16,073 bases of DNA from a virus. Its lineage: Duplodnaviria > Heunggongvirae > Uroviricota > Caudoviricetes. Location: IMG/VR virus record IMGVR_UViG_2667527592_000011, positions 1 to 16,073 of that record. One strand, 5' to 3'. This document shows positions 463 through 15,869 of this stretch, piece by piece. Within the stretch, counting starts at the first letter, position 1. Every line of letters begins with the position of its first letter. The position numbers and the translations under genes were made by a program. The notes beneath the pieces were generated by a model. The model did no database searches, was not told the origin of the DNA, and saw nothing but the letters and a program-made list of their open reading frames with translations.

Positions 463-485
463 ACCCATCTTTGGATGGGTTTATT
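461..485. terminator. Bidirectional rho-independent-like terminator between convergent genes
   Basis: Perfect hairpin AAACCCATC (461-469) / GATGGGTTT (474-482) with a 4-nt loop, flanked by A/T-rich sequence on both sides; sits between the stop of the + strand gene and the stop of the - strand gene at 496. Confidence 0.5.
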
Positions 486-495
486 CATATTCTAT

Positions 496-768: not shown

Positions 769-804
769 AATTTTCTCCATCAAAACCGGCTGCACCCGGG
801 AAAA

Positions 805-1377: not shown

Positions 1378-2111
1378 CACTTCACCTCCTGCGGCGGTTC
1401 CGGTAGCGGCATCCAGTGAGTTGCTTGCTCAATACCATTACCCGGCTTAATCGTTGCATCTCCGCGCCGAAAGGTGCTTCCGGTATAGCGTGCGGAGCAT
1501 ATTAGCGGTTCAACCAGAGAGCTATCGAAATTCACCGAAATAAGCACGTTCTGGCCCTTTTCAGGCATTCGATCACTACAGCTTATCCAACTATCCGGAG
1601 TTCCCGGAGAGTTGCCATTTACATCGAAGTTTGGCTCTGCGTCCTGAACCAAGAGGATGTAACCATTCTTGGCTGTATCAAGTTCTAACGCTTCGGTGAC
1701 GGTGCCGAAATAGCGATTACCTAAATCAGCATCACAAGTGCTTATATCAATGGAAACTTCCATGCCTTCGATTAATTCTGGCAAGTTGTAAGTTTGGCTT
1801 ACAGGTTGGCTACCCTGAAGCATGGCGGCGCGGTGACACCAGATAATCCAGCCAAGTGCCATATCCCATGCCATGTATTCTCTATCGCCATTTTTTGCCC
1901 TACGGCGATCTACAGATTCCCCGAAACGCTTCTCTATAAATAATTCATAGGCTGCTCGTTCATCCGATACTGCTGCCAGTGATGCCAGTGCAATTTTTAA
2001 TGCGGTAAGCATGTTGTTTTGATCTTCATCGAGTCCGAACGGTATTTCATCCCGTGCTGACTCAATGCTGGTAATCGTGTTCTGTAACCATTCTTTGGTA
2101 AGAGTATTCAT
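1377..2111 (-). CDS. Phage hypothetical protein with a DUF551-like C-terminal region
   Basis: 244-aa ORF; ATG at 2111-2109 preceded by AAGGTGA. C-terminal segment WISCSDRMPEKGQNVLI...HWMPLPEPP resembles the DUF551 signature (from memory). Confidence 0.55.
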   Translation of the reverse strand: MNTLTKEWLQNTITSIESARDEIPFGLDEDQNNMLTALKIALASLAAVSDERAAYELFIEKRFGESVDRRRAKNGDREYMAWDMALGWIIWCHRAAMLQGSQPVSQTYNLPELIEGMEVSIDISTCDADLGNRYFGTVTEALELDTAKNGYILLVQDAEPNFDVNGNSPGTPDSWISCSDRMPEKGQNVLISVNFDSSLVEPLICSARYTGSTFRRGDATIKPGNGIEQATHWMPLPEPPQEVK

Positions 2112-2113
2112 AA

Positions 2114-2305
2114 CTATTTCACCTTAATCTCAACATTTCGCAGCTTTAGCTCTACTGGCAAGTCTGACTTTCCTGTTAATGCTAATGCGAGATTTTCAGG
2201 AGTAATGAGAGCAGTTATTGTTTTCCCCATCGCCAGACGAATAATCATTCGTATCTCGCGATCGTCACATGCTCCCGGTCGAACAATTGATATTTGTCCG
2301 TTCAT
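2114..2305 (-). CDS. Small hypothetical protein (63 aa)
   Basis: ATG at 2305-2303 preceded by AGGAG; stop 2 nt before the next start; fits the tight coupling of the operon. The ORF-track version (2114-2386) extends upstream in the same frame without a ribosome-binding site. Confidence 0.4.
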   Translation of the reverse strand: MNGQISIVRPGACDDREIRMIIRLAMGKTITALITPENLALALTGKSDLPVELKLRNVEIKVK

Positions 2306-2306
2306 C

Positions 2307-2906
2307 TCACTCTCCTTTGATGCGAATGCCTGCGGCGCGTGGCACATTAACTTCCACGATGCGCACATTTGGTTTGTACATCTCAATCGCTGTCAGCCAG
2401 TCAGCGCCGGTCATATGCTTTTCTGCATCGCCATTAGTCCATTGAACCGGCACACCAATAGCTTTCATCGCAATTTCTATTTCCCCGGCAATGGCGCTTT
2501 TCCCGCAACCAGTAAAACCAGAGACAACGACAAGAACTTCGCCTTTGGCTGGTTTTATTTCCCGTGCTTCCAGTTCAGCAATACGCTTACTCCCATCCGA
2601 GATAACACCTTCGTAATACTCACGCTGCTCGTTGAGTTTTGATTTTGCTGCCTCCAGTTCGTCCAGTAGTGCAATCACATCAGGGTCACTGTCATCAACT
2701 ACTGTTACGCGTGATTTTTCATAATGCTCGTCGGCAAGTGTGCGACCAATTTTGAAATCTCCATCACCACCATAACTGGAGCAGGCATAAGTGACATGTG
2801 CTCCAGATATACGCTGTATTGACATTTCCTCGCCACAAACAGAGCATTCAGGTACTGGCTTAGGTGAATAACGTTCCCGTAGCGCCTGATAATCAATCTC
2901 GCTCAC
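2307..2906 (-). CDS. Hypothetical protein with an N-terminal Cys-rich (zinc-ribbon-like) segment and a C-terminal Walker-A-like motif
   Basis: GTG start at 2906-2904 overlaps the upstream TGA (GTGA) and is preceded by AAGGAGG. Residues CSVCGEE...YACSS and GFTGCGKS (G-x4-GKS). Possibly Ea22-like, unverified. Confidence 0.55.
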   Translation of the reverse strand: MSEIDYQALRERYSPKPVPECSVCGEEMSIQRISGAHVTYACSSYGGDGDFKIGRTLADEHYEKSRVTVVDDSDPDVIALLDELEAAKSKLNEQREYYEGVISDGSKRIAELEAREIKPAKGEVLVVVSGFTGCGKSAIAGEIEIAMKAIGVPVQWTNGDAEKHMTGADWLTAIEMYKPNVRIVEVNVPRAAGIRIKGE

Positions 2907-3388
2907 TGGTTGCCCTCCTTCATAAAAATAATCCAGTGGGTCTTGTCACCCTTTCCTGTTCGTTGACCGATAACAGGCTTTCTGTCGGTCAGTGCCAATA
3001 TCTGGCGAACAGGTATTTGCGTTTCATTCCATTTAAAAATCAGAACGCCGTATGGCCACAACACACGAAAGGCTTCTTTGAATCCTTGCCGTAAATCATC
3101 ACGCCGGGTATCTTTATTCAGCCGTCCATATTTCTTTCCCATCCAGGCGTTATCACCAACACGCTCAAGATGCGGAGGGTCGAATACAACCATCGAAAAG
3201 GATGCGTCTGCAAATGGTAGTGCACGAAAATCAGCTATCAGGTCAGGACTGATAATCAGGCGTCGTCCATCACACAATGTGTGCTCTTCCTTTCTGATAT
3301 CGCTAAATATCGCCCGGTCGTCATTCTTATCGAACCAGAACATGCGACTGCCACAGCACATGTCGAGGATTGCTGCATGTCCAGTCAC
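2903..3388 (-). CDS. Small putative DNA methyltransferase (YfdM-like)
   Basis: AdoMet-binding-like motif ILDMCCGS and catalytic-type motif VVFDPPH (DPP[YFH]). Preferred start is GTG at 3388-3386, preceded by AAGGAGG with a 7-nt spacer and overlapping the upstream TGA; an alternative ATG lies at 3421. Confidence 0.6.
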   Translation of the reverse strand: MTGHAAILDMCCGSRMFWFDKNDDRAIFSDIRKEEHTLCDGRRLIISPDLIADFRALPFADASFSMVVFDPPHLERVGDNAWMGKKYGRLNKDTRRDDLRQGFKEAFRVLWPYGVLIFKWNETQIPVRQILALTDRKPVIGQRTGKGDKTHWIIFMKEGNQ

Positions 3389-3927
3389 TGGCTGCCTCCT
3401 TTGCGAAGCCGTTCCGCCCATTCTTCAAGGGATTTCTCTGCATATTCACCGGACAGGCCATCAATCGGGTGCGGTTCATTAGCCAACTCTTCTTTCGCTG
3501 ACAGAATCATGCGCGTAACGTCGAAAACTTCACGTAAAGACTTATTGATAAATCCGTGGTTGAAAGCAGCAGCAAGACGGCTTGCGGTATAGTTAATCCC
3601 CTCGTTGCGCGCCTCCGCACGTATTTCAGCCAGGAAAGCGTCGGTGGCTGGCATATTTCCTGTTGCCTTCATGGCCTCCAAAATAACCAGAACGCCATCT
3701 CGCCCAACCTCCTCAGCGATAACCTCGGTGTTGTCGCCAACAACATCGCAGAATGCCTGAACCGCCTTACGAGCCAGTTCATTCTCCGCCGCAAGCGCCG
3801 AAATCTTAGCCTCCGCTTCAGCAAATTTACGCACCAGATACTCAGCATTTGTTTCATTCACTTTCAGATCTCGCGGTACACATTTCCCGCGAAGAAACCC
3901 TTCCATTTCGAAAACATTCATGCGCAT
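3385..3927 (-). CDS. Phage hypothetical protein (180 aa)
   Basis: ATG at 3927-3925 preceded by GGAG; translationally coupled on both sides; Ala/Glu-rich central segment suggests a coiled coil. No family recognised. Confidence 0.55.
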   Translation of the reverse strand: MRMNVFEMEGFLRGKCVPRDLKVNETNAEYLVRKFAEAEAKISALAAENELARKAVQAFCDVVGDNTEVIAEEVGRDGVLVILEAMKATGNMPATDAFLAEIRAEARNEGINYTASRLAAAFNHGFINKSLREVFDVTRMILSAKEELANEPHPIDGLSGEYAEKSLEEWAERLRKGGSQ

Positions 3928-4454
3928 TTGCGTAACTCCGATAACTCGTTAAAACGTTCCATAAACATCCCATAGGCATGGACTGGCGACAGTGGAATAA
4001 CTTTGAACATCTCTGTTGCCGGGATACCTTCCAGAACAGGCCAGAAAGAGCCATCATCAAGCCCGAGATCACGGCGTTCGGTTGCCAGCATAATGAGATC
4101 GGCATATTTCACTGGCGTGCTCATAACAGGAGGTAACCCGTATTTCTCACGGATTACGGCGTCTATTTTTTCTTCCATCCGTTTATAGTCAGGAAGAAGT
4201 CGTTTCAGTGGCGCGGGGATGTCCTGGCAATATGCTTCTGTTGCATCATGCATTAACGCTTCAAAAGCAAATTCCTGCGGCACCAGCTGGCTGCAAAGCA
4301 CCGCATGCTGGGCGACACTGTAGAAGTGTGAAAGATGTCCTGCAAAGCGACAGATATTTGAAAGGGAAACTGCGATATCGTTAATCACGATGTCGTCTTT
4401 ATTTATCTTGTCATAATAAAAATGCTTCCCGGAAAAAGTTTTAATAAATGACAT
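3918..4454 (-). CDS. HD-domain phosphohydrolase (YfdR-like 5'-deoxynucleotidase family), 178 aa
   Basis: HD signature: H in SVAQHAVLCSQL and HD in ALMHDATEAY. Preferred start ATG at 4454-4452 with GGAG 6 nt upstream; the ORF track's GTG at 4466 is less likely. Length matches YfdR of CPS-53 (from memory). Confidence 0.7.
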   Translation of the reverse strand: MSFIKTFSGKHFYYDKINKDDIVINDIAVSLSNICRFAGHLSHFYSVAQHAVLCSQLVPQEFAFEALMHDATEAYCQDIPAPLKRLLPDYKRMEEKIDAVIREKYGLPPVMSTPVKYADLIMLATERRDLGLDDGSFWPVLEGIPATEMFKVIPLSPVHAYGMFMERFNELSELRKCA

Positions 4455-4548
4455 TTCGTTCTCCACTTTATATGCGCTGCACCGCGCTGAATTCTGCTAA
4501 AAGGAAGCTCTCACCATCCGGTGATTATTGAGTTAATTACGTTTCCAT

Positions 4549-4570
4549 AAATGCCCCCGCAGGGGCATTT
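4549..4570 (-). promoter_or_regulatory. Intercistronic stem-loop just after the YfdQ-like stop (possible attenuator or RNA-stability element)
   Basis: Perfect 9-bp stem AAATGCCCC / GGGGCATTT with a 4-nt loop, 13 nt downstream of the stop at 4583-4585; only a short U-tract follows on the - strand transcript, so it is not a canonical terminator. Confidence 0.3.
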
Positions 4571-4582
4571 GCAGTAATGAAA

Positions 4583-5407
4583 TCAGGCGGTGAAAGTACC
4601 AATAAAGGTTTCTACTTTGCTGTCTTTGAATTTCTCAACAAGCAGATCACGAAATTCGTTAGCCATTTCTTCCTGCATCGCTTCCAGCTGAATAATGCGA
4701 AGAACCAGTACAGGACGATCGCCAGTGATAATGCTGAGGCGTAATTTAAACGGACGTTCTTTCAGGCCTTCAAACGGAACGCATTTAAATTCAAATGCCA
4801 CTGGCATAATGTCTTTGGTTTTCGCTTCGACAGACTCCATCAGAGAGCGTTTGCCGCTGAAGTCATTGTCTTCAAAATCAGCGGTCTGGTTTGCTTCAAT
4901 TGTGATTTTACGGACTGCCGCAGCCGCTTTGGTTGCCTGAATGGTGTCACCATTAGCATCAAAGCCCACAAGGTAGTCGGCCCAGTCTTCAATCCATTCT
5001 GCCAGTGACTTCTGGGAGTTACGCTCGCCATTAACAGACAACAGAGCAGAAAACGGTGCTGTCTTTTTCAGTTTGAGGGTGGCGGTGTTATCTGCGTGAC
5101 CTGGTTCATCAATAGTACCCAGGTTAAGCACACTGACGGCACGCATATTATCGGCATCGATAAAGCAGCGGGTGCCTTCATCTGCAAGATCTTTAGAATA
5201 ACGGGTAAAGTCATCGATGCTGGCAGTGGAAAGCGCACCACGGAAACGGAAGCGATTTAAATTAAATTTTTCCAGATCATGAATGCGGAAATTCTCAGGC
5301 AATGCCACTGCATCGGCACCAATCTTACTGATAATTTCATTAACACCCTGAGCAGAAATAAGGGCATGGATTTGATTAATTGCGGTTGCGTCTAAGTTCT
5401 GAGACAT
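4583..5407 (-). CDS. YfdQ-like protein (DUF2303 family), 274 aa
   Basis: ATG at 5407-5405 preceded by GAGGA; length and position next to YfdR-like and YfdP-like genes match CPS-53-type prophage order (from memory). Confidence 0.6.
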
Positions 5408-5472
5408 AATAAGTCCTCACTATATAAAGATATTCAGTGATGAGATAAATAATCAGTTTATTAATAACGATA

Positions 5473-5835
5473 TTAATGACCTGCTGCGCGTAGTTTTCCG
5501 TCAGGCTCACCGGCAAGAGTCAGTAATTGTCCCTGGTCTTCCTGCAGAATAGTCAGGCGACCACCGCGATTGACATACATCGGCGTTTCGGTGGTGTCTT
5601 CTTCGGAAATTTTCCCGCGGTTAGTCGGGCGAACATATGAGAGTTTGTGTTTGATTTTCACACGGTTCTCATCAAATGGTTCGATTTCCAGGTTGAGTGA
5701 GACCTTACCTTTGGTTTTCGTGTTCATCACACCGGAAGCGACTTCACTGAGAACTGCGCCGATTTTGGTTTCAAATACGCCGCCGTCCAGCTCCCCGATA
5801 AATGCCTGCACATCAGTACTGCGTTCGCTAGCCAT
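5473..5835 (-). CDS. YfdP-like hypothetical protein (120 aa), first gene of the leftward operon
   Basis: ATG at 5835-5833 preceded by AGGAG with an 8-nt spacer. The ORF-track version (5473-6021) extends upstream without a ribosome-binding site and is Cys/Arg-rich, so the shorter form is preferred. Confidence 0.55.
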   Translation of the reverse strand: MASERSTDVQAFIGELDGGVFETKIGAVLSEVASGVMNTKTKGKVSLNLEIEPFDENRVKIKHKLSYVRPTNRGKISEEDTTETPMYVNRGGRLTILQEDQGQLLTLAGEPDGKLRAAGH

Positions 5836-5884
5836 TTTGCTGCTCCTCATCATATCGACCCTGCAAGGTCGGTTGGTTTCTCCA

Positions 5885-5982
5885 CAAAACAGAGAAGAAC
5901 ACTTGCGGTGGCAGCCGCCCGGATGGATTGGGTTATCAGCTCGTCGTCCGGTGATGCTCTTCTCTGTTTTGTAAAAAGAGCG
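5885..5982 (-). promoter_or_regulatory. boxA-like motif followed by a long imperfect hairpin in the PL leader (candidate antitermination or termination RNA element)
   Basis: On the - strand transcript: CGCTCTTTTTA (reverse complement of 5972-5982), resembling lambda/rrn boxA, immediately followed by a 14-bp stem CAAAACAGAGAAGA / TCTTCTCTGTTTTG (5885-5898 with 5958-5971) enclosing a 59-nt loop with internal GCGG/CCGC and CCGGA/TCCGG pairings. Confidence 0.3.
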
Positions 5983-6176
5983 GTACCAGCCGGAAGCAAG
6001 TGTACAAACTGGTACCGCCAAAGCAGTGGCTGTTGTGGTGACCGGTGCTGATCTCCGGCATGCGGTTATTTCAGACTCTCACGGGCATTTAATTGCCCCG
6101 CCGAACAGCTCTTTTCCGCAATAGCTGCAATGTCTTTCGCGCATCAGCCTGCGCATTCACCACAACTCTAAAAACA

Positions 6177-6230
6177 AATGTAGGATATCCAACATGTGGG
6201 TGTCAAGAGTTTATGTTGGTTATCCTACAT
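6177..6230 (-). promoter_or_regulatory. OL/PL: leftward early promoter with overlapping operators
   Basis: On the - strand: TTGACA (reverse complement of 6201-6206), 17-nt spacer, CTACAT (reverse complement of 6178-6183). 18-bp operator ATGTAGGATATCCAACAT (6178-6195) overlaps the -10; a second copy ATGTTGGTTATCCTACAT lies at 6213-6230. Confidence 0.55.
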
Positions 6231-6246
6231 AAAAAGATAGGCTCAT

Positions 6247-6273
6247 AAAAAAAACCGGGGATACCCCGGTTTT
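6247..6273 (-). terminator. Rho-independent terminator downstream of the repressor gene
   Basis: CCGGGG-ata-CCCCGG hairpin (6255-6269) flanked by an A8 run (6247-6254) and a T4 run (6270-6273); on the - strand the stem is followed by nine U residues, about 20 nt after the cI-like stop. Confidence 0.6.
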
Positions 6274-6293
6274 GCGATAGTGAGGAAGATGTG

Positions 6294-6947
6294 TCAAAAA
6301 TCCATTATTACTTGTTTGACAAGACCAACTATTCTGCAGTTCTCACCGCATTCAATAGTTTTATAGTTAGGATTTAGTGGGACGAGATACCTGTTCGGCC
6401 AGTCCTCAACAAATTTTTTGAGTGTCGCTTCTTGCCCACCATTGATATGGGCAACAACGATTTTTCCGTTAATACACTCTGTATCAATAATATCTGGCTC
6501 TACGATAACGATAGAACCTTCTGGTATCGATGGTGAGCCGAGGGGATTGGTCATTGAATCACCACGGACCCGTAGTGCAAATGCCATTTCTGATACAAGG
6601 GCGGTAGTATAAACCCACTCTTCAGCATCTTCTTTCCTGACACCAGGCTCCGTCATTGTCCATGAACCCGCCTGAACCCACGAGATAAGGGGGACTTTTT
6701 TAACTGCGAATATTTCAGGTTTTAGATTTATCTTTGGTTCAGGCGAGCCTTTTCCGCTAACAAGCCACAGAGGATCGCATTTAAGTGCGTTGGCTAGGGC
6801 TTGAAGGTTGGCTCCATTTGGTTGGTAGTCGTCCTTTTCCCATCCAGTAACCGTGACGCGGTTCACACCAGTCAAATCAGCCAGTGCTTGTTGTGTCAGG
6901 TTCAGTTCTTTTCGCCTTTGGCGAATACGATCACTCATGTTCATCAT
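6294..6947 (-). CDS. cI: CI-like prophage repressor (HTH_XRE N-terminal domain + S24 LexA-like peptidase domain)
   Basis: N-terminal HTH (LTQQALADLTGVNRVTVTGWE); Ala-Gly cleavage-site candidate (WVQAGSW); catalytic Ser in RGDSM and Lys in ATLKKF. Divergent from a cro-like gene across the operators; no ribosome-binding site, possibly leaderless as for lambda cI from PRM. Confidence 0.85.
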   Translation of the reverse strand: MMNMSDRIRQRRKELNLTQQALADLTGVNRVTVTGWEKDDYQPNGANLQALANALKCDPLWLVSGKGSPEPKINLKPEIFAVKKVPLISWVQAGSWTMTEPGVRKEDAEEWVYTTALVSEMAFALRVRGDSMTNPLGSPSIPEGSIVIVEPDIIDTECINGKIVVAHINGGQEATLKKFVEDWPNRYLVPLNPNYKTIECGENCRIVGLVKQVIMDF

Positions 6948-7011
6948 GTAGGCAATCCTACCACATGCCCATGTAGGATTCTTGACATTGGTATGTTGGA
7001 TATCCTACATT
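6946..7011 (+). promoter_or_regulatory. OR/PR: rightward early promoter with three operator-like sites
   Basis: TTGACA (6982-6987), 17-nt spacer, CTACAT (7005-7010). Operators: ATGTTGGATATCCTACAT (6993-7010, over the -10), ATGTAGGATTCTTGACAT (6971-6988, over the -35) and a degenerate site ATGTAGGCAATCCTACCACAT (6946-6966) overlapping the cI start codon; spacing about 21-22 bp. Confidence 0.6.
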
Positions 7012-7042
7012 TCTGCTTAACGTAATTTAACGGGAGGCAGAA

Positions 7043-7240
7043 ATGCGGAAATCCGACGTGATTAATTATTTCGGCGGAGTTTGTAAAACCGCCGAAGCCC
7101 TAGGTATTAAGCATCCGTCTGTTTCAGAGTGGCCTGAGATTATTCCTGAAGGCCGAGCGTACCAGTTAGAAAAAATTACTAACGGGAAACTGAAAGTTGA
7201 CGTGTCTTTATATCAAAAGACTAACAGTGCTGCGGCATAA
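7043..7240 (+). CDS. cro: Cro-like repressor (P22 Cro family)
   Basis: 65 aa; GGGAGG 5 nt upstream of the ATG. MRKSDVINYFGG...ALGI...SVSEWPEIIPEGRAYQLEKITNGKLKV closely parallels P22 Cro (MYKKDVIDHFG...ALGISDAAVSQWKEVIPEKDAYRLEIVTAGALK, from memory). Divergent from the cI-like gene. Confidence 0.8.
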   Translation: MRKSDVINYFGGVCKTAEALGIKHPSVSEWPEIIPEGRAYQLEKITNGKLKVDVSLYQKTNSAAA

Positions 7241-7267
7241 AAACACCACAGAAATGAGGAATTAACC

Positions 7268-7852
7268 GTGGGTAAAGAACCTGAATGGAAAGTTGATAAA
7301 CAGCCAGCATGGCTGGTGGCAGCAATACGAAGAACGATTGCTGATTTACCTCATGGTTATGAGGAAGCAGCAGAAATTCTTGGTTTGTATAAATCTGATG
7401 ATATCACCCCAGCAAAAGATCAATTGCATAACAGACTGCGTAGCGGTGGGGATCAAATTTTTCCACTTGAGTGGGCCATGGTTTTACAGGATGCCAGTGG
7501 TACCAGGCATGTAACGGATGCAATAGCCCGTCGTAGTAATGGGGTGTTTGTGCCGCTGGTGGTCATTGATGACATTGACAATGGTGACATTAATCAGCGG
7601 CTGATGGAGTCAATAGAATGGATTGGCAAGCATTCCCAGTACTTACGCAAGGCAACTGCTGATGGAGTTATTGACCAGGCTGAGCGTGAGCAAATCGAAG
7701 AGAACAGCTACCAAGTAATGGCGAAGTGGCAGGAGCATTTAACACTGTTATTTCGTGTTTTTTGTGCGCCGGAAAAGAGTAACGCCCGCGAGTGTGCAGC
7801 TCCGGGCGTCGTGGCGTCGATTGCTTCTGGTTGTGGAGAAACTAACGCATGA
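7268..7852 (+). CDS. Hypothetical regulator at the cII position (possibly YmfL/CII-like)
   Basis: GTG start at 7268 preceded by GAGGA; 194-aa ORF immediately after cro. Family is inferred from position and recollection only; the C-terminal 35 residues are Cys/Ala-rich and of doubtful validity. Confidence 0.45.
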
Positions 7853-8187
7853 ACAGTTTAACAACACACTACCGTCGCTCGCAACTGATTGCGCTTCCTG
7901 TACCGGGTGGAAAAGCGAAGGTGGAGTATTGCTATGCAGTAAATGTACCAGGTGGCAGGGTAATTGTAACCCACAGCTTTGCAGAGTGGGCTGTGGGTGA
8001 TTTCAACCGGCAGAAGGAGACAGTCCTTTGCGACAAGTTAACCGCTGGTTCAAAGATCACTACGGAGTGCCCGTCAGAGTCATTCGTTGGGAGCCGGAAA
8101 CACAACGGGTTATCTACCTCCGCGAAGGTTATGAGCATGAATGCTTCAGTCCGCTCGAACAGTTTCGTCGTAAATTCAGGGAAATAG
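7849..8187 (+). CDS. YmfM-like protein (112 aa), possible SOS-associated cell-division inhibitor; 3' half has a competing reading frame
   Basis: ATG at 7849 overlapping the upstream stop (ATGA); length and position (after the cII-position gene, before the O-like gene) match e14 ymfM (from memory). The 3' third is Ser/Thr/Asn-rich low-complexity sequence, while another frame over 8001-8207 reads protein-like. Confidence 0.4.
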
Positions 8188-8196
8188 AGGTCGGTC

Positions 8197-9138
8197 ATGA
8201 GCACTAAATTAACCGGCTATGTATGGGATGGTTGCGCTGCATCAGGCATGAAGTTATCCAGCGTGGCAATTATGGCCCGCCTGGCTGATTTCAGTAATGA
8301 CGAAGGTGTGTGCTGGCCATCAATTGAAACCATTGCCCGTCAGATTGGCGCGGGGATGAGTACCGTCAGAACGGCTATCGCACGGCTGGAAGCAGAAGGC
8401 TGGTTAACGCGTAAGGCGCGTCGCCAGGGTAACCGCAATGCGTCGAATGTTTATCAGCTTAACGTTGCGAAGCTTCAGGCAGCGGCATTTTCTCAACTGT
8501 CAGATTCTGACCCGTCAAAATCTGACGCATCAAAATCTGACCCGTCAAAATTTGATGCGTCGAAATCTGGCAAAAAAGCGGGTTTTCACCCGTCAGAATC
8601 TGGCGGGGATCCGTCAGTAAAATCAAAACATGATCCGTCAGATAAAAAACCTTCTCGTCCGGACGCTTCGCAACCGGACACGCAGACGGCTGAACAGGAG
8701 TTTTTAACTCGCCATCCTGATGCGGTTGTATTCAGTCCTAAAAAGCGCCAGTGGGGAACGCAGGATGATTTGACCTGCGCACAGTGGCTCTGGAAAAAAA
8801 TCATCGCTCTGTACGAGCAGGCCGCTGAATGTGACGGCGAAGTGGTACGTCCTAAAGAACCGAACTGGACAGCCTGGGCAAACGAAATTCGCCTGATGTG
8901 TGTACAGGATGGGCGTACTCACAAACAAATCTGCGAGATGTACAGCCGCGTCAGCCGCGATCCGTTCTGGTGCCGTAACGTGCTCAGCCCGTCGAAGCTG
9001 CGGGAAAAATGGGATGAGCTTTCCCTGCGCTTATCGCCGTCCGTCAGCACGTACACAGAAAAACGCGAAGATCCGTACTTCAAAGCCAGTTACGACAATG
9101 TGGACTACAGCCAGATCCCGGCAGGATTCAGGGGGTGA
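8197..9138 (+). CDS. Replication initiation protein, O-like (N-terminal winged-helix DNA-binding domain, iteron-encoding repeat linker)
   Basis: GAGG 7 nt upstream of the ATG. N-terminal HTH region (SVAIMARLADFSNDEGVCWPSIETIARQIGAGMSTVRTAIARLEAEGWL); central repeat PSKSD/ASKSD/PSKFD/ASKSG encoded by 15-bp direct repeats; follows the cro, cII-position and ymfM-like genes as oweE does in e14. Confidence 0.7.
   Translation: MSTKLTGYVWDGCAASGMKLSSVAIMARLADFSNDEGVCWPSIETIARQIGAGMSTVRTAIARLEAEGWLTRKARRQGNRNASNVYQLNVAKLQAAAFSQLSDSDPSKSDASKSDPSKFDASKSGKKAGFHPSESGGDPSVKSKHDPSDKKPSRPDASQPDTQTAEQEFLTRHPDAVVFSPKKRQWGTQDDLTCAQWLWKKIIALYEQAAECDGEVVRPKEPNWTAWANEIRLMCVQDGRTHKQICEMYSRVSRDPFWCRNVLSPSKLREKWDELSLRLSPSVSTYTEKREDPYFKASYDNVDYSQIPAGFRG
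8514..8650 (+). repeat. Iteron-like direct repeats inside the O-like gene (candidate phage replication origin)
   Basis: Four tandem 15-bp units CCGTCAAAATCTGAC / GCATCAAAATCTGAC / CCGTCAAAATTTGAT / GCGTCGAAATCTGGC (8514-8573), further CCGTCAG-containing copies to about 8643, then an A-rich tract GATAAAAAACC. Confidence 0.55.
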
Positions 9139-9140
9139 TT

Positions 9141-9629
9141 ATGAGTCTTTTGAATGAAGTTCAGAAATTCATTGAAGCCCATCCGGGGTGTACTTCCGGA
9201 GACATTGCGGATGCTTTGGCAGGTTACTCACGGCAGCGCGTTCTGCAGTCAGCAAGCAAGTTACGTCAGAGTGGGCGTGTGGCTCACCGTTGTGAAGGAG
9301 ATACACGCAGACATTTCCCACGCCTGACTGAGAGAGCGCAGGAGCCGGAACCACAACCAGTTCGTGAAACCAGACCTGTGCGCAATTTCTATGTCGGCAC
9401 TAACGATCCCCGGGTGATTTTGTGCCTGACCCGCCAGGCTGAAGAACTGGAGTCAAGGGGCTTATACCGTCGTGCTGCAACGGTGTGGATGGCGGCATTC
9501 CGTGAAAGCCACTCCCAGCCAGAACGAAACAATTTTCTGGCGCGTCGTGAGCAGTGTTTACGGAAAAGCAGCAAGCGTGCTGTATCGGGTGATGAGTGGT
9601 ATCTGTCAGGGAATTACGTGGGGGCTTAA
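9141..9629 (+). CDS. PerC/Pch-family transcriptional regulator homolog with an N-terminal winged-helix-like extension
   Basis: Preferred start ATG at 9141 (GGGGGTGA upstream); the ORF track starts at a GTG at 9135. C-terminal signature GLYRRAATVWMAAF...FLARREQCL resembles the PerC motif GLWRRAA..W...RR..C (from memory). Confidence 0.55.
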   Translation: MSLLNEVQKFIEAHPGCTSGDIADALAGYSRQRVLQSASKLRQSGRVAHRCEGDTRRHFPRLTERAQEPEPQPVRETRPVRNFYVGTNDPRVILCLTRQAEELESRGLYRRAATVWMAAFRESHSQPERNNFLARREQCLRKSSKRAVSGDEWYLSGNYVGA

Positions 9630-10282
9630 TGAGTAATAAATATTGCCAGGAGCTGGTGGAACTGCGGAACAAACCAGCCCATGAACTGAAGGAAGTGGGC
9701 GATCAGTGGCGCACGCCGGACAACATTTTCTGGGGAATTAACACCCTGTTTGGCCCGTTTGTTCTGGATCTGTTCACTGACGGTGATAACGCCAAATGTG
9801 CTGCGTATTACACGGCGGAAGACAACGCGCTGGCGCATGACTGGTCAGAACGTCTTGCGGAGCTTAAAGGTGCTGCCTTTGGTAATCCCCCATACAGCCG
9901 CGCCAGTCAGCATGAGGGGCAATACATCACTGGCATGCGTTACATCATGAAGCATGCCAGTGCCATGCGTGATAAGGGCGGGCGCTATGTTTTCCTGATC
10001 AAAGCTGCCACCAGCGAAGTGTGGTGGCCGGAAGATGCGGACCATATTGCTTTTATTCGCGGGCGTATTGGTTTTGAACTGCCTGTCTGGTTTATCCCGA
10101 AAGACGAGAAGCAGGTACCGACAGGCGCTTTCTTCGCTGGTGCTATTGCTGTTTTCGACAAGACCTGGAAGGGACCGGCAATCAGCTACATCGGGCGCGA
10201 TGAACTTGAGGCATGTGGTGAGGCGTTTTTGGCGCAGGTTCGCCAGCAGGCAGAAAAACTTGTCAGGGAGATGGCGGCATGA
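9629..10282 (+). CDS. Phage Dam-type DNA N6-adenine methyltransferase
   Basis: Catalytic motif FGNPPYS (NPPY). ATG at 9629 overlaps the upstream TAA (TAATG); the ORF-track extension from 9596 has no ribosome-binding site. 217 aa. Confidence 0.75.
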   Translation: MSNKYCQELVELRNKPAHELKEVGDQWRTPDNIFWGINTLFGPFVLDLFTDGDNAKCAAYYTAEDNALAHDWSERLAELKGAAFGNPPYSRASQHEGQYITGMRYIMKHASAMRDKGGRYVFLIKAATSEVWWPEDADHIAFIRGRIGFELPVWFIPKDEKQVPTGAFFAGAIAVFDKTWKGPAISYIGRDELEACGEAFLAQVRQQAEKLVREMAA

Positions 10283-10605
10283 CGACGTTAACTCAATGCC
10301 AGCAGCAGGTGCTGGATATGCTGATTTCTTACCAGCAAGAGCGTGGCTTTCCGCCAACCAATCAGGAGGTGGCAACCATGCTGGGATACCGTTCAGTGAA
10401 TGCAGCGGTGGAGCATCTTCGCGCACTGGAGAAAAAAGGCGTCATCACGATAAAGCGTGGCGTGGCCCGGGGGATCACGCTTCATACCGCAGTGAAGGAC
10501 GACGACAGCGAAGCGGTCGGTATCATCCGCGCACTGCTTGCCGGTGAGGAGAACGCTAGGTTGCGTGCAGCCCACTGGTTACATGAGAGGGGCCTGAAAG
10601 TATGA
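10279..10605 (+). CDS. LexA DNA-binding-domain-only protein (no S24 peptidase domain)
   Basis: LTQCQQQVLDMLISYQQERGFPPTNQEVATMLGYRSVNAAVEHLRALEKKGVITIKRGVARGITL parallels the E. coli LexA N-terminus ([65 protein letters not shown], from memory). Only 108 aa, so the cleavage site and Ser/Lys dyad are absent. ATGA overlaps on both sides. Confidence 0.7.
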   Translation: MTTLTQCQQQVLDMLISYQQERGFPPTNQEVATMLGYRSVNAAVEHLRALEKKGVITIKRGVARGITLHTAVKDDDSEAVGIIRALLAGEENARLRAAHWLHERGLKV

Positions 10606-10991
10606 AGTTGATCCTTCCTTTCCCGCCCAGTGTGAACACGTACTGGCGACACCCCAACAAAGGGGCATTTGCTGGTAAGAGCCTGATAAGCGAGGTGGGG
10701 CGAAAATTTCAGAGCGCGGCGTGCGCAGCAATAGTTGAGCAGTTACGTCGTCTGCCGAAACCAACGTCGGCACCTGCTTCAGTGGAGATCGTGTTGTTTC
10801 CGCCGGATAACCGGATCCGTGATCTGGACAACTATAACAAGGCGCTGTTTGACGCCCTGACCCACGCGGGTGTGTGGGAAGACGACAGACAGGTGAAAAG
10901 AATGCTGGTGGAGTGGGGACCGGTTATCCCGAAAGGGAAGGTCGAGATCACTATCAGTAAGTACGAGAAAACGGCGGGTGCAGCCGCCTGA
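10602..10991 (+). CDS. rusA: RusA-family Holliday junction resolvase
   Basis: 129 aa; PFPPSVNTYWRH and DLDNYNKALFDALTHAGVWEDDRQV match the RusA signature (PWPPSNNRYYRH, DLDN...FDALT); GAGAGGGG upstream of the ATG. Confidence 0.85.
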   Translation: MKLILPFPPSVNTYWRHPNKGAFAGKSLISEVGRKFQSAACAAIVEQLRRLPKPTSAPASVEIVLFPPDNRIRDLDNYNKALFDALTHAGVWEDDRQVKRMLVEWGPVIPKGKVEITISKYEKTAGAAA

Positions 10992-11010
10992 TTAAGAGGA
11001 GAAACGAAGT

Positions 11011-11820
11011 ATGAATAATCTGATGGTCATTGATGGTATTGAAGTTCGTCGTGATGCTTATGGGCGTTACAGCCTGAACGATCTGCATCGCGCAGCAGTA
11101 GCATCTGGTGCAAATGCCAGAACCAAGGAGCCAGGAAAGTTTCTTTCCAGCCAACAAACTGTTGAGCTTGTTCATGAATTGACCAACACCCAGAATTTGG
11201 GTGTTGACCCGGTGAGTGTGATTCATGGGGGAAATGAACGGGGAACGTATGTCTGCAAGGAACTGGTGTATGCCTATGCAATGTGGATCAGCCCGTCATT
11301 CCATCTGAAGGTGATCCGTACTTTCGATATGGTAACCAGCGCACCGGAAAAATTATCCGGGCAGGCTGCTGACAAGATGCAGGCTGGTGTGATTCTGCTG
11401 GACTTTATGCGCAGGGAGTTAAACCTGTCTAACTCATCAGTGCTTGGTGCCTGTCAGAAACTCCAGGAGGCTGTTGGCTTACCGAATCTGGCACCGCGCT
11501 ATGCTATTGATGCTCCTGCTGACGCGCCTGATGGCTCAAGTCGCCCCACGCTGTCGCTGAGTGCACTGCTGAAACAGTATGGTATCCGCCTTACGGCTAA
11601 TCAGGCATATCACCAGATGGTGAAGCTGGGGATCGTCGAGCAGCGCGAACGATACAGCCGTACCGCGATTAACAACATCAAAAAATTCTGGTCGCTGACA
11701 GCGAAAGGCTGCATGTTCGGCAAGAACATCACCAGTCCCGCAAATCCGCGCGAGACGCAGCCGCATTTCTTCGAATCCCGATTCCCTGAGCTGTTAAAGC
11801 TGCTCGATACCGTTCATTGA
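11011..11820 (+). CDS. KilA-N domain protein
   Basis: Strong ribosome-binding site AAGAGGAG; N-terminal KilA-N-like region (VIDGIEVRRDAYGRYSLNDLHRA...VIHGGNERGTYVCKELVYAYAMWISPSFHLKVI). Confidence 0.65.
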   Translation: MNNLMVIDGIEVRRDAYGRYSLNDLHRAAVASGANARTKEPGKFLSSQQTVELVHELTNTQNLGVDPVSVIHGGNERGTYVCKELVYAYAMWISPSFHLKVIRTFDMVTSAPEKLSGQAADKMQAGVILLDFMRRELNLSNSSVLGACQKLQEAVGLPNLAPRYAIDAPADAPDGSSRPTLSLSALLKQYGIRLTANQAYHQMVKLGIVEQRERYSRTAINNIKKFWSLTAKGCMFGKNITSPANPRETQPHFFESRFPELLKLLDTVH

Positions 11821-11821
11821 G

Positions 11822-12817
11822 GTGACTGTGAGAGCACTACTGACCCCTGAAATTGCCCCGCGTATGGGGATCGTATTGTTCAGACCTGGTTCAGAGCTGA
11901 TGCCCCTGTTTATGCAGGGGCGTGTCCTGCTGGAGCCTGAGCCGGAACGTTATTCATCTTTTGCCAGTGGTGCCGTTCCGGCGGCATCACAACCGCTGGC
12001 GGATGATCCTGTCGTTCGGGCCGTGTTCCGCAATGAGGCAGTGATCCGTCGTGCTGGTGGCGTGGAATGTCTTGAAAGCTGGTTACTTCGTGAAAAGGGC
12101 TGTCAGTGGCCTCATTCCGACTGGTACAGCGAGAACATTACCACAATGCGACACGCTCCGGGCGCAATCCGTCTGTGCTGGCACTGCGATAACCAGCTGC
12201 GCGATCAGTTCACGGAACGGCTGGAATCAATGGCAACGGATAACTGTGCCCGCTGGGTGTTGTCTGTTGTGCGTCGGGATCTCGGTTTTGATGATAGTCA
12301 CGTTGTGACAATGCCGGAACTGTGCTGGTGGCTGATTCGTCATGATCTGGCGGATGCCTTACCGGAAAGTGCAGCCCGTAAGGCACTGAGATTACCAAAG
12401 CCTGTTGTGCCGTCTGTCACCCGGGAAAGTGACCTTGTGCCTTCGGTTCCTGCCACCAGCATCATCCAGGATAAGGCAAAAAAGGTGCTGGCGCTGAAAG
12501 TGGATCCGGAGTCGCCGGAGTCTTTTATGTTACGCCCAAAACGTCGCCGCTGGGTTAATGAAAAGTACACGCGCTGGGTTAAGACGCAGCCGTGTGCATG
12601 TTGTGGAAAGCCTGCTGATGATCCCCACCACCTGATAGGTCACGGTCAGGGTGGAATGGCTACAAAAGCGCATGACCTCTTTGTGTTGCCTTTGTGCAGA
12701 AAGCATCACGACGAGCTGCATGCGGATACCGTGGCATTTGAAGAGAAGTATGGCTCCCAGCTGGAGCTGATATTTCGTTTTATCGATCGTGCGCTGGCAA
12801 TAGGCGTGCTGGCCTGA
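11822..12817 (+). CDS. DUF968 / NinG-like protein with a C-terminal HNH-type Cys/His motif (YdfU-like)
   Basis: C-terminal CACCGKP...DPHHLIGHGQGG...LPLCRKHHDELH; sits directly upstream of Q as ydfU does in Qin (from memory). Start is uncertain: GTG at 11822 or 11828. Confidence 0.6.
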   Translation: MTVRALLTPEIAPRMGIVLFRPGSELMPLFMQGRVLLEPEPERYSSFASGAVPAASQPLADDPVVRAVFRNEAVIRRAGGVECLESWLLREKGCQWPHSDWYSENITTMRHAPGAIRLCWHCDNQLRDQFTERLESMATDNCARWVLSVVRRDLGFDDSHVVTMPELCWWLIRHDLADALPESAARKALRLPKPVVPSVTRESDLVPSVPATSIIQDKAKKVLALKVDPESPESFMLRPKRRRWVNEKYTRWVKTQPCACCGKPADDPHHLIGHGQGGMATKAHDLFVLPLCRKHHDELHADTVAFEEKYGSQLELIFRFIDRALAIGVLA

Positions 12818-12834
12818 TTTTGTGGAGAAAGTTG

Positions 12835-13206
12835 ATGCGTGATATTCAAATGGTTCTTGAACGTTGGGGGGCATGGGTGGCAAATAATCACGAGGATGTG
12901 GAATGGTCATCTGTTGCTGCAGGTTTTAAGGGATTAATTCCTTCGAAAGTAAAATCCCGCCCGCAATGTAGCGATGACGATGGCCTGATCATTAGCTCTG
13001 CGATGACAGTTCTTAAGAAAAAGGAACCGTATCAATACGAATTACTGGAAATGTATTATGTGTATGGGGTTACATTACGGGCGTTGGGGGTAAAACTGGG
13101 GATATCACTTAATCAGGTTGTTATCAGACTGCAGAAAGCTGAAGGGTTTATTGACGGTTGTCTGGCAATGTTGGGGGTATCTTTAGAAATTGATTGTTAC
13201 ATATAG
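12835..13206 (+). CDS. Q-type late-gene antiterminator (phage 21 / DLP12 QuuD-like family)
   Basis: ATG at 12835 with GGAG 8 nt upstream; N-terminus MRDIQMVLERWGAW...SKVKSRPQC...RLQKAEGFIDG parallels QuuD-type Q proteins (from memory). The ORF track's TTG at 12820 is less likely. Confidence 0.7.
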   Translation: MRDIQMVLERWGAWVANNHEDVEWSSVAAGFKGLIPSKVKSRPQCSDDDGLIISSAMTVLKKKEPYQYELLEMYYVYGVTLRALGVKLGISLNQVVIRLQKAEGFIDGCLAMLGVSLEIDCYI

Positions 13207-13281
13207 TAATAAATTCAATCAAAGTAAATAATCATATTTTATTATAACCTCCTGATGATACCTGTTCATTGGGAGGTTATT

Positions 13282-13899
13282 ATGGATAAAAATGTAGAGC
13301 ATGTATTAGTTGATGCAATTGAAAATAAGCAATCTTTAACAGTCGTTTACTTAGGAGGGAGCCAGCCCGGAACATTAAGGAATATTTCTCCGATTAGTAT
13401 AAATGGGGATAAATTGCGGGCAAGATGCCATAGTTCTGGAGCAGTAAAGGTTTTCAATCTTGGGAAAATACAGTTACCCAGTGACTCCTGCGCGGTATCT
13501 ATGCACTATGGAGATTTAGAAGTTAAAGCTTATGAGACGATGCAGAGCGTAAATGACAACTTTCATGCCCTTTATCCTGAAGGACGATGGGGTGTTGATT
13601 TTAATGAGCATCGCTTTGCTTTATTTGATTTTTTTAAAAACGGGAAACGAAAAAAAACGGCATTTATGGCAATTGAGTTCAGGGAAAGAGATGAAGAGAA
13701 AATAATAACAGGTGTAACAATTGATATTGGTATATCTGGAACAGTGATTTCTGAGAAGTCCCGAATCCCAAAAAGACGACCATGGGTAGTGGTTGGTCCC
13801 GAACACGGAGAATACAGTACTTATTCAACTTTGGACAAGGCTGCTACAGCGTTTTTTGAGAGGCTATCGTTGATAGCATCCGGCCTGGAAGATAATTGA
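13282..13899 (+). CDS. Hypothetical protein, AT-rich cargo (moron) gene, 205 aa, unknown function
   Basis: GGGAGG 5 nt upstream of the ATG at 13282; stop TGA at 13897-13899. Markedly AT-rich (about 38-40% GC by eye) and Lys/Ile/Asn-rich against its flanks; lies between Q and the holin, the usual cargo slot of lambdoid phages. No recognisable catalytic motif. Confidence 0.6.
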   Translation: MDKNVEHVLVDAIENKQSLTVVYLGGSQPGTLRNISPISINGDKLRARCHSSGAVKVFNLGKIQLPSDSCAVSMHYGDLEVKAYETMQSVNDNFHALYPEGRWGVDFNEHRFALFDFFKNGKRKKTAFMAIEFRERDEEKIITGVTIDIGISGTVISEKSRIPKRRPWVVVGPEHGEYSTYSTLDKAATAFFERLSLIASGLEDN

Positions 13900-14028
13900 T
13901 TTTATGTTTGGTATTCAGAGTTCGCCGTGCTTAAGAAAGTCAAGATTCTAAAAATACTGAATGAGCTACTTGTGTTATAACAAAAATGCTATTAGTGTGT
14001 TAAGAGTGGTTACTTCGCCACACAACTT

Positions 14029-14054
14029 AAACCCGCCACTGAGCGGGTTTTTTG
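14029..14054 (+). terminator. Rho-independent terminator (end of the cargo gene transcript, or tR'-like)
   Basis: CCCGC (14032-14036), loop cactga, GCGGG (14043-14047), then T6 (14048-14053). Confidence 0.6.
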
Positions 14055-14175
14055 TACCTGTAAACTTGGTGCAGTACAGTAAACACGCTGGTGGTCGTGA
14101 ATACTGACTTTTTATCTTGCTGGCTTTTTAGACAAGAGTTATTGGTATGTTATGTTAACCAGAAGGGAAAAAGAC

Positions 14176-14379
14176 ATGCTAAAACAGCAAGATATGACAG
14201 AAACCGCCGCCGCAGTCCTTCATTTCTTACCTGCTGACAAGTGGGTAACGCCACGCATGATGACGAGAACTACCGGAGTAAGCGAAGCCCGGTGCCAGTT
14301 AATACTGACTCAGTTAGTTCTGGCGGGTCTGGCGAAGGATAACGGCGGGTACGGGAATAAATTCAGACGCTGCCAGTAA
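14176..14379 (+). CDS. Small hypothetical protein (67 aa), possibly a winged-helix DNA-binding protein
   Basis: ATG at 14176 preceded by AGAAGGGAAA; the ORF-track form starts at 14152. Segment TPRMMTRTTGVSEARCQLILTQLVLAGLAKDNGGYGNKF has an HTH-like character; directly upstream of a methyltransferase gene. Confidence 0.4.
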   Translation: MLKQQDMTETAAAVLHFLPADKWVTPRMMTRTTGVSEARCQLILTQLVLAGLAKDNGGYGNKFRRCQ

Positions 14380-14529
14380 TGGCGGTTTCCTGCTGTGAAA
14401 ATGGGCGGCTGGTGGGTGTTGGTAGCACCTGCCAGCCATTCGCTCATGCTTACTGGTCACAAGCGAACCACGGCCCACTGCTTTAGCGCAAAAGCAGAGT
14501 GAGCCTACCAGAGTTACGCTTACTGATCC

Positions 14530-15582
14530 ATGAAAAATACTGTAAAAATAAACAGTGTTGGTTTAATCAACGCTGATTGCCTGCATTTTATTCAGTCCCT
14601 GCCTGATGATTCCATTGACCTGATTGTTACCGATCCGCCGTACTTCAAGGTGAAACCCAACGGTTGGGACAATCAGTGGAAAGGGGACGAAGATTACCTT
14701 AAGTGGCTGGACCACTGTCTGGCCCAGTTCTGGCGGGTGTTAAAACCTGCCGGAAGCCTTTACCTGTTCTGTGGGCATCGTCTGGCATCTGATATTGAGA
14801 TCATGATGCGTGAACGTTTCAACGTGCTTAACCATATCATCTGGGCGAAGCCGTCCGGACGTTGGAATGGGTGTAATAAAGAAAGTCTGCGCGCATATTT
14901 TCCTGCCACAGAGCGCGTTCTGTTTGCTGAACATTACCAGGGGCCATATCGCGGCAAAAGTGACGGCTATGCAGCAAAAGAAAGGGAACTCAAACAGCAC
15001 ATAATGGCACCGCTGATATCGTATTTCAGGGATGCTCGTGCCGAACTGGGTATAACGGCAAAACAAATTGCCGAAGCCACAGGTAAGAAAAATATGGTTT
15101 CCCACTGGTTTGGTGCCAGTCAGTGGCAGTTGCCGAATGAGGCTGACTATCGGAAGTTACAGGCACTGTTTTCCCGTATAGCGGCAGAGAAGTTTCAGGA
15201 ACAACAACTGGAACAACCACACCACCAGCTGGTGGCATCTTATGATTCACTGAATCGCAAATATTCTGAATTGCTGGATGAGTTTAAATCTCTCCGGCGC
15301 TATTTCTCCGTATCAGTCTCCGTGCCTTATACCGATGTCTGGATGCATAAACCCGTTCAGTTCTACCCGGGGAAACATCCGTGTGAGAAACCGGCGGATA
15401 TGCTCAGGCAAATAATCAATGCCAGTAGTCGACCAGGTGATCTGGTTGCTGATTTTTTTATGGGATCCGGTTCCACAATAAAAGCAGCAATGGCGCTGGG
15501 GCGTCGGGCCTTAGGTGTTGAGCTTGAGTCAGAGCGGTTTAACCAGACAGTGAAAGAGATAAACGAGCTGGTGGGGAAATAA
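14530..15582 (+). CDS. Beta-class DNA methyltransferase (N6-adenine or N4-cytosine specific), apparent orphan
   Basis: Motif [12 protein letters not shown] near the N-terminus and motif [14 protein letters not shown] near the C-terminus (beta-class order). No candidate restriction endonuclease gene adjacent within the window. Confidence 0.8.
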
Positions 15583-15586
15583 TCTG

Positions 15587-15612
15587 GTGGCCACGTCAGG
15601 TGGCCTTTTTAT
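15587..15612 (+). terminator. Rho-independent terminator after the methyltransferase gene
   Basis: GGCCAC (15590-15595), loop gtcag, GTGGCC (15601-15606), then T5 (15607-15611), 8 nt after the stop. Confidence 0.55.
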
Positions 15613-15649
15613 TTCCATTACACAGCACCCGCATCTGCGAGGTGGGGTT

Positions 15650-15865: not shown

Positions 15866-15869
15866 TTCA

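Follow-up and report, generated by a model that had tools for sequence, protein, structure and literature searches.

Two probable same-strand genes overlap at the ymfM locus of an e14-like prophage, leaving the SfiC polypeptide ambiguous

This analysis concerns the ymfM locus in a 16,073-nucleotide stretch of viral DNA (Duplodnaviria; Heunggongvirae; Uroviricota; Caudoviricetes) that corresponds to positions 1 to 16,073 of IMG/VR record IMGVR_UViG_2667527592_000011 and is referred to below as the window. The list of open reading frames (ORFs), the matches to PHROGs and NCBIfam, and the annotated neighbors identified positions 6294-9138 as the immunity and replication part of an e14-like lambdoid prophage. 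Within this part, the segment at 7849-8207 probably holds two genuine protein genes on the same strand, ymfM and a gene for a DUF4222 protein, which overlap by 160 nt and whose reading frames are both maintained. The features of the segment and its borders, in which the ratio of nonsynonymous to synonymous differences is abbreviated as pN/pS, are as follows:

7268-7852, plus strand: cII-like ymfL regulator gene (NCBIfam NF041471 YmfL, E = 8e-54; phrog_101, CII-like)
7835-7838, plus strand: GGAG, Shine-Dalgarno-like, 10 nt 5′ of the ymfM ATG, as read from the sequence
7849-8187, plus strand: ymfM ORF of 112 amino acids (aa) with an ATG start, homologue of Escherichia coli K-12 b1148, 'cell division inhibitor YmfM' in the NC_000913.3 annotation
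7849-8027, plus strand: non-overlapped N-terminal module of ymfM, about 60 aa, coding by pN/pS; phrog_20047 corresponds to residues 1-63 only
7850-7852, plus strand: ymfL stop codon TGA, overlapping the ymfM ATG as ATGA
8013-8020, plus strand: GAAGGAGA, Shine-Dalgarno sequence of the DUF4222 gene, with its AGGAG core at 8015-8019
8028-8207, plus strand: DUF4222 gene, 59 aa, with a TTG start at 8028 and a TAA stop at 8205-8207 (Pfam PF13973; WP_001250269.1 of the Prokaryotic Genome Annotation Pipeline, PGAP)
8028-8187, plus strand: dual-coding overlap of 160 nt, in which ymfM codons 60-112 (the Ser/Thr-rich tail) lie over DUF4222 codons 1-53
8197-9138, plus strand: O-like replication initiator gene with its ATG at 8197 (phrog_391, E = 1.5e-135)

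Each of the two ORFs has its own translation signals, which are the ATGA coupling and GGAG for ymfM, and the TTG start with an AGGAG core located 8 nt upstream for DUF4222. The DUF4222 gene is in the -1 register relative to ymfM, and its TAA lies 8 nt past the O-like ATG, so that the gene ends 11 nt within the O-like gene. The ymfM stop codon (TAG, 8185-8187) lies 10 nt before the O-like ATG, and the O-like gene is in frame with ymfM, with the TAG and three codons between them (TAG AGG TCG GTC ATG, 8185-8199). Readthrough of this TAG would give a YmfM-O-like fusion, and the position of the TAG is kept in all e14-type loci. A preliminary description of the window, made from the sequence alone, had reported a 112-aa frame with a Ser/Thr/Asn-rich end and a second protein-like frame over 8001-8207 that runs into the O-like gene. 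Both frames were confirmed: the second is open from 8001, after a TGA at 7998-8000, to the TAA at 8205-8207, and it matches PF13973. The same description had noted that the second frame has no ATG and that TTG 8028 is its sole candidate start; this TTG is the first start codon of the frame, and the Shine-Dalgarno sequence in front of it had been missed. Its statement that the second frame shows typical enterobacterial codon choice was inaccurate, as the DUF4222 ORF contains several rare codons (CGA, AGA, AGG, CGG, GGA, ATA, and CTC twice). At least the rare ATA is linked to the overlap, as the ymfM stop codon is formed from it.

The 59-aa ORF scored 69 bits with Pfam PF13973 (cut-off 27; E = 2.6e-19), covering profile positions 1-52 of 53, and matched phrog_1343 with E = 2e-34, and 139 close homologues were found, with homologues having a length of 58-78 aa. 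Among 95 distinct homologous contexts, the DUF4222 start codon was ATG in 74, GTG in 17, and TTG in 3, and a Shine-Dalgarno-like sequence preceded it in 90. The conservation of this frame is evidently far beyond chance, and the frame is to all appearances a genuine conserved gene. The YmfM protein matched phrog_1170 (E = 4e-68, residues 1-112), is 97-98% identical to database YmfM proteins, and has homologues of 112-117 aa down to 44-50% identity. The ymfM frame matched no Pfam family, and no NCBIfam model covers YmfM or the DUF4222 protein. PHROGs hold separate families for the 112-aa protein (phrog_1170), its first 63 residues (phrog_20047), and the 59-aa protein, with function unassigned in all three. 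In terms of predicted structure, the AlphaFold2 model of the DUF4222 protein (predicted local distance difference test score, pLDDT, 82.5) consists of a five-stranded barrel with a short helix, and the protein is modeled as a conserved small Tudor/SH3-like beta-barrel. A sequence search of the PDB gave no match. The full YmfM protein was predicted with low confidence (pLDDT 44.9).

The two frames have been annotated separately. PGAP annotates the exact TTG-started ORF as WP_001250269.1, 'DUF4222 domain-containing protein', without ymfM, in an enterotoxigenic E. coli (ETEC) strain and in a K-12 derivative, and NZ_CP053607.1 (locus L002, 1747-1926) is annotated with the DUF4222 ORF only. In the curated MG1655 record NC_000913.3 (L242, 2323-2661), ymfM b1148 is annotated without a DUF4222 coding sequence. 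The phage GenBank records examined list one frame or the other and none lists both, and in many Shiga toxin phage records DUF4222 is unannotated. The nested DUF4222 gene is already annotated in RefSeq. The locus is common, as the sequence at 7700-8300 has 99% identity to E. coli chromosomes and is present in 2,679 of 5,426 complete E. coli genomes, and 519 aligned nt of the window are 99% identical to the e14 ymfL-ymfM region.

For the comparison, 28 loci were fetched from the genome collection by the DUF4222 protein alone, and are thus unbiased for the ymfM frame, and these were combined with 5 phage loci to give 33 close loci. Overall, 135 loci with the N-terminal module were collected from the genera Escherichia, Shigella, Klebsiella, Citrobacter, Enterobacter, Kluyvera, and others, and the diverse loci were located by four single-protein scans. 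The widened DUF4222 sample comprised 242 sources with 167 distinct core sequences, which formed 21 clusters at 80% identity and extended down to 35% identity to the window protein. Individual loci, and clusters named after them, are given by L numbers where a distinction is needed. Within the overlap, 2,929 sequence pairs gave the following values:

DUF4222 frame: pS 0.58, pN 0.13, pN/pS 0.23, mean amino-acid identity 0.72
ymfM frame: pS 0.19, pN 0.24, pN/pS 1.30, mean amino-acid identity 0.49

Nucleotide differences in the overlap fell mostly at DUF4222 third positions (0.41, versus 0.16 at position 1 and 0.12 at position 2). DUF4222 is the frame under protein-level constraint in the overlap. 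The third-position differences and the pN/pS values indicate that DUF4222 dictates the sequence and that the Ser/Thr-rich tail is its shadow. The preliminary description had named conservation of the ymfM C-terminus, without conservation of the alternative frame, as the pattern that would speak against its proposal of a second coding frame; the opposite was seen, with the alternative frame being the conserved one. It did not foresee that selection nevertheless maintains an open ymfM frame, which makes both frames real.

The evidence for the ymfM frame comes from its openness across DUF4222. In all 33 close loci, the ymfM-type frame begins at an ATG upstream of DUF4222, continues across that gene for 52-54 overlapping codons, and ends at the same stop site. 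Of the 167 distinct DUF4222 genes, 149 are stop-free in the +1 (ymfM) frame and the other 18 contain a single stop there; 1-8 stops occur in the +2 frame, and flanking genes have 0.055 +1-frame stops per codon. This openness could be explained if only DUF4222 and the N-terminal module matter and the tail is a tolerated read-through that stays open through shared ancestry and codon habits. The predicted disorder of the tail and its pN/pS of 1.30 agree with that explanation, as do the occurrence of the module alone as an ORF in Yersinia phage YeP1, L122, and L139, the loss of the open frame in two clusters, and the fairly high probability of an open frame, P(open), of 0.07-1.0 that was obtained by within-gene codon permutation. 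When P(open) was determined for each cluster by synonymous resampling with flanking-gene codon usage, values of 0.015-0.37 were obtained, yet the frame is open in 19 of the 21 clusters, down to 35-47% identity, versus about 2 of 21 expected (Poisson-binomial tail 7e-21, ignoring phylogeny). In addition, the DUF4222 synonymous sites are heavily diverged (pS 0.58) and have turned over without any stop. The use of codons that create a +1 stop before A was as follows:

Val followed by A, as GTA or GTG (GTR): 70% in flanking genes (n = 410) versus 1% in DUF4222 genes (n = 332)
Leu followed by A, stop-making codons: 88% in flanking genes versus 0% in DUF4222 genes (n = 44)

The same DUF4222 genes do use GTG (22-27%) and CTG (23-37%) at safe Val and Leu sites, which argues against a general codon habit, while the critical sites swap GTT/GTC, CTT/CTC, and Val/Leu and never yield a +1 stop. 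The position of the ymfM stop is conserved, and this stop is always built from a rare ATA, TTA, or CTA at DUF4222 codon 53. The gene rgdR (ECs1581), a DUF4222 gene in a P4-like element, served as a negative control; it has four +1 stops within the domain and uses GTA-A and GTG-A freely, and the open +1 frame is therefore not intrinsic to the DUF4222 family. Taken together, these results make a merely tolerated tail improbable. Compared with stop-free resamples, the ymfM tail, which is predicted to be disordered (AlphaFold2 pLDDT about 30-40), was enriched in Ser/Thr (0.30 versus 0.21) and depleted in hydrophobic residues (0.36 versus 0.46), and Trp was also lower. Selection evidently keeps the tail frame free of stops, holds its terminal stop immediately ahead of the O start, and shifts its composition toward Ser/Thr and away from hydrophobic residues.

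Several observations weigh against the reading that both frames are maintained genes. The amino-acid sequence of the ymfM tail is without constraint of its own, and with a pN/pS of 1.30 its translation is therefore argued for only by stop avoidance, stop placement, and composition. The openness statistics take clusters that are less than 80% identical as independent, which they are not fully, and two clusters (L139 and L160) and three L201 members carry one +1 stop. In some lineages (Hafnia phage yong2, L201, L233, and L185), the +1 frame is open even without an N-terminal module leading into it, and what is selected may not be 'YmfM' as such. Sites of the form NTG-G, at which the +1 frame reads TGG (Trp) and not a stop, are also under-used (GTG-G 2% versus 23%, and CTG-G 13% versus 44%, in DUF4222 and flanking genes, respectively); an example of such a site in the window is L43, CTC-GAA. 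Stop avoidance alone therefore fails to explain the whole codon pattern. Finally, the DUF4222 gene of the e14-type E. coli loci starts at a weak TTG.

The non-overlapped part of ymfM appears to be coding in its own right. At 7849-8027, pN/pS in the ymfM frame is 0.39-0.42, and both other frames carry stops; by these measures, the N-terminal module is fast-evolving yet clearly coding and under purifying selection. Of 30 distinct start contexts of ymfM, 29 show the ATGA overlap with the preceding stop codon, and 29 have a Shine-Dalgarno-like tetramer ahead of the start. The module itself was predicted with a pLDDT of 50-66. It is fused to the tail in e14-type phages and also in lineages with a DUF4222 of only 43-47% identity, and it stands alone as an ORF of 53-69 aa in YeP1, L122, and L139. 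In YeP1, it is a 53-aa ORF that ends at the DUF4222 start, and in L122, L157, and L139, it occupies the +2 frame and terminates at AATGA a short way into DUF4222, with a +1-frame ATG overlapping that TGA. In phages SfV and ST64B, the frame from the module continues into an Ash/Rha-type gene, and in Hafnia phage yong2, the annotated Ash gene begins 4 nt past the DUF4222 start; these genes are either real fusions or have misplaced start codons. Genes annotated as Ash/Rha or 'transcriptional regulator' that contain a YmfM-like module, the +1 shadow of an unannotated DUF4222, or both were L035 1352-2188 (SfV orf37), L036 1358-2515 (ST64B sb41), and L038 1484-2167 (yong2 'Ash family protein').

The 3′ border of the overlap is similarly constant. 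In almost every cluster, the stop codon of DUF4222 and the start codon of the replication gene that follows overlap (as ATGA or ATGAGCACTAA), irrespective of the kind of replication protein encoded, and the +1 stop lies within about 15 nt of the replication gene start in most clusters. The patterns across lineages fit an older DUF4222 gene that has been overprinted by a frame translated in most lineages. The overlap would most likely have arisen when an upstream small ORF that was once separate, as it still is in YeP1, L122, and L139, was extended over the older DUF4222 gene. Translation of the tail could supply a disordered C-terminal extension or relay ribosomes to the replication gene.

The preliminary description had left a frameshift mutation or sequencing indel, a short overlapping gene, and a recoding event as possible causes of the two-frame layout. 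Its overlapping gene was borne out by the conserved start and the layout, and the other two were not, given that the layout is shared and that no slippery heptamer was found. If an indel had split an ancestral gene whose true product is the N-terminal module fused to DUF4222, fused relatives would be the ones to look for, and a few fused database proteins do exist (P0032, P0053, P0060, P0063, and P0090); these have five different junctions and come mostly from single assemblies. Klebsiella phage KpF5 also has, by chance, a DUF4222 frame that stays open upstream over 129 codons. The two-frame layout, in the same register, is common to 33 of 33 close loci, to 135 loci overall, and to about 1,977 E. 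coli records, and the module and DUF4222 were in one frame in 0 of the 33 close loci and 0 of the 135 loci. With the DUF4222 start and Shine-Dalgarno sequence conserved, and with the window aligning gap-free at 99% identity to complete genomes, a frameshift mutation or indel is exceedingly improbable.

Programmed -1 ribosomal frameshifting that joins the ymfM module to DUF4222 was considered as the recoding event, as the DUF4222 frame is the -1 frame of ymfM and a Shine-Dalgarno-like GAAGGAG lies just 5′ of the junction. A Shine-Dalgarno-like sequence stimulates frameshifting in dnaX. A slippery heptamer was absent near the DUF4222 start in all 95 distinct contexts; no X_XXY_YYZ heptamer occurs there where both frames are open, and heptamers are found only at the far 3′ end of the overlap. 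The independent start codon of DUF4222 is conserved together with its own Shine-Dalgarno sequence, and frameshifting gives no reason for the zero frame to be open for 52 further codons. Recoding was rejected, with very little probability left to it, in favor of two overlapping genes.

The DUF4222 frame is also open upstream of its start for 81 codons (7755-8000), a stretch that appears to be a shadow of the coding sequences of ymfL and ymfM. As a candidate gene, this upstream ORF was rejected: it has no Pfam match, and it overlaps the 3′ end of ymfL and the module, where only the ymfM frame is stop-free across homologues. In KpF5 (L004, 1239-1628), the upstream frame is continuous with DUF4222 in an ORF of 129 codons that begins with GTG.

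The remaining ORFs of the region are as follows:

6294-6947, minus strand: LexA/cI-like repressor gene
7043-7240: cro-like gene
7932-8204, minus strand: antisense ORF of 90 aa, codon-for-codon opposite DUF4222, judged to be a shadow ORF

The antisense ORF could in principle be a functional partner that shapes the codon choice of the segment. It is open in the window and in 155 of 167 homologues, and in about 19 of 21 clusters versus 10.8 expected, or 13.7 expected given an open +1 frame. The baseline P(open) for this frame is high at 0.3-0.8 (about 0.5, rising to about 0.7 when the +1 frame is open), since avoiding just TTA, CTA, and TCA codons is enough to keep it open, and much of the excess follows from the +1-frame constraint. 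Sporadic antisense stops occur inside clusters (6 of 18 L122 members and 2 of 5 L025 members), and the length and ends of the ORF vary between loci (51-115 aa). The probability that the +1 frame is open given an open antisense frame is still 0.02-0.45, so that antisense openness leaves +1 openness unexplained. A functional antisense partner is thus highly unlikely, and ymfM and DUF4222 are the two frames considered below.

In the surrounding sequence, six tandem repeats with 15-nt spacing, TCAAAATCTGACCCG-like, are located inside the O-like gene (8485-8607) and resemble the iterons of a lambda-type origin within O. On the 3′ side of the O-like gene (9135-10282), homology to the ETEC locus L001 identified a PerC-family (yfdN-like) gene followed by a phage N6-adenine methyltransferase gene, and these two ORFs overlap by 34 nt (9596-9629). 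An Rfam search over 7849-8207 gave no match, the sole match being a spurious sub-threshold microRNA on the repeats of the O-like gene. A search for internal promoters and terminators gave no promoter-like site and two weak terminator-like hairpins at about the level of shuffled sequence.

The arrangement suggests how the two genes may be expressed. Both frames would be translated from the early-right (pR-type) transcript after inactivation of the LexA-like repressor, with ymfM translated by termination-reinitiation from ymfL and DUF4222 by independent initiation, and both frames would pass ribosomes on to the replication gene.

The overlap bears directly on a named host phenotype. Expression of the ymfM ORF (b1148; YmfM, or SfiC) of the cryptic prophage e14 is reported to inhibit Z-ring formation and to cause filamentation (bioRxiv 10.1101/2020.11.19.390815; PMC3614548; PMC6206680). 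In the work of Ansari et al., the ymfM 'open reading frame' was cloned in pBAD24, and ymfM was deleted by lambda Red recombination. Along with the Shine-Dalgarno sequence and start codon of DUF4222, the ORF in pBAD-ymfM contains 53 of the 59 DUF4222 codons, a portion that makes up practically the entire folded domain. An earlier library clone, D1-8E, carries ymfL(142-185), ymfM, and ymfN(1-92), thus all of DUF4222, and the ymfM deletions made in uropathogenic E. coli (UPEC) likewise remove both frames. In the literature on ymfM and on DUF4222, no paper was found that mentions the nested gene, and none of the experiments read distinguishes the two frames by footprints, peptides, or frame-specific phenotypes. 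The published constructs and deletions that were read carry or remove both frames, and the SfiC polypeptide is therefore not assignable to YmfM or to the DUF4222 protein; either protein, or the two together, may cause the filamentation attributed to 'ymfM'. A further and more tentative possibility, which we regard as doubtful, is that SfiC is, or requires, the nested 59-aa DUF4222 protein, in which case the chief role of the stop-free tail would be to pass ribosomes along from the cII-like gene to the replication gene and to modulate DUF4222 initiation. The novelty appears to lie in the evidence for maintenance of both frames and in the ambiguity that follows for a named K-12 function.

The distinction matters because ymfM is a named K-12 gene with an assigned function, a cell division inhibitor and the long-sought sfiC. 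The K-12 reference lists ymfM alone, across thousands of genomes PGAP lists the DUF4222 frame alone, and none of the records examined lists both. If both genes are real, the SfiC filamentation gene is not pinned to a polypeptide, and every ymfM knockout, including those of the UPEC infection studies, is a double knockout. In that case, the module of cII, small ORF, DUF4222, and replication gene found in many enterobacterial temperate phages would also be a natural example of an overprinted frame that is held open without sequence constraint, useful for studies of translational coupling and of the origins of overlapping genes.

Among known systems, embedded same-strand gene pairs of phages include Rz/Rz1 of lambda and the overprinted genes of phiX174. 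In these pairs, as in ymfM and DUF4222, the shorter gene starts independently and is read in a different frame from the longer gene on that strand; one frame is older and constrained, and the other is novel, compositionally biased, and likely disordered. The present pair differs in that DUF4222 is not wholly embedded, running 20 nt past the ymfM stop into the next gene, and in that the overlapped part of the longer gene, ymfM, shows no sequence constraint of its own.

The locus resembles YmfM/SfiC of e14 in the 112-aa ORF and in having the same neighbors (LexA-like repressor, cro, ymfL, and O-like gene). The difference is that ymfM counts as one gene in the K-12 annotation and in the papers, while here a second conserved gene is found in its 3′ half.

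For the nested protein itself, RgdR (ECs1581) of the E. coli O157:H7 prophage Sp7/CP-933C (OI-51) is the only experimentally studied DUF4222 protein found in the literature. RgdR activates LEE1 (locus of enterocyte effacement 1) and type III secretion, represses motility, and binds DNA non-specifically, and its RGD motif (residues 20-22 of ECs1581) is reported to be important for activity (PMC3378721; PMC10877973). Both proteins match PF13973 (E = 2e-23 for RgdR and 2.6e-19 for the window protein), and hhalign aligned them with a probability of 97% and 43% identity over 47 columns. Both are small prophage proteins, and in both cases the end of the gene overlaps the start of a replication gene, which is a primase gene in Sp7 and the O-like gene in the window. 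The stop codon of rgdR (L244, 3720-4019; Sakai ECs_1581) overlaps the start of its downstream primase gene (4016). RgdR differs from the 59-aa window protein in its length of 99 aa, with N- and C-terminal extensions, and in its location in a P4-like element, and rgdR lacks an overlapping ORF in the +1 frame, where the domain region contains four stops. The RGD motif is absent from the window protein; hhalign pairs residue 22 of ECs1581 with residue 6 of the window protein, which by extension places RGD opposite V4-N5-R6. RgdR rewires host virulence and motility gene expression, and the nested protein is therefore a plausible host-directed regulator.

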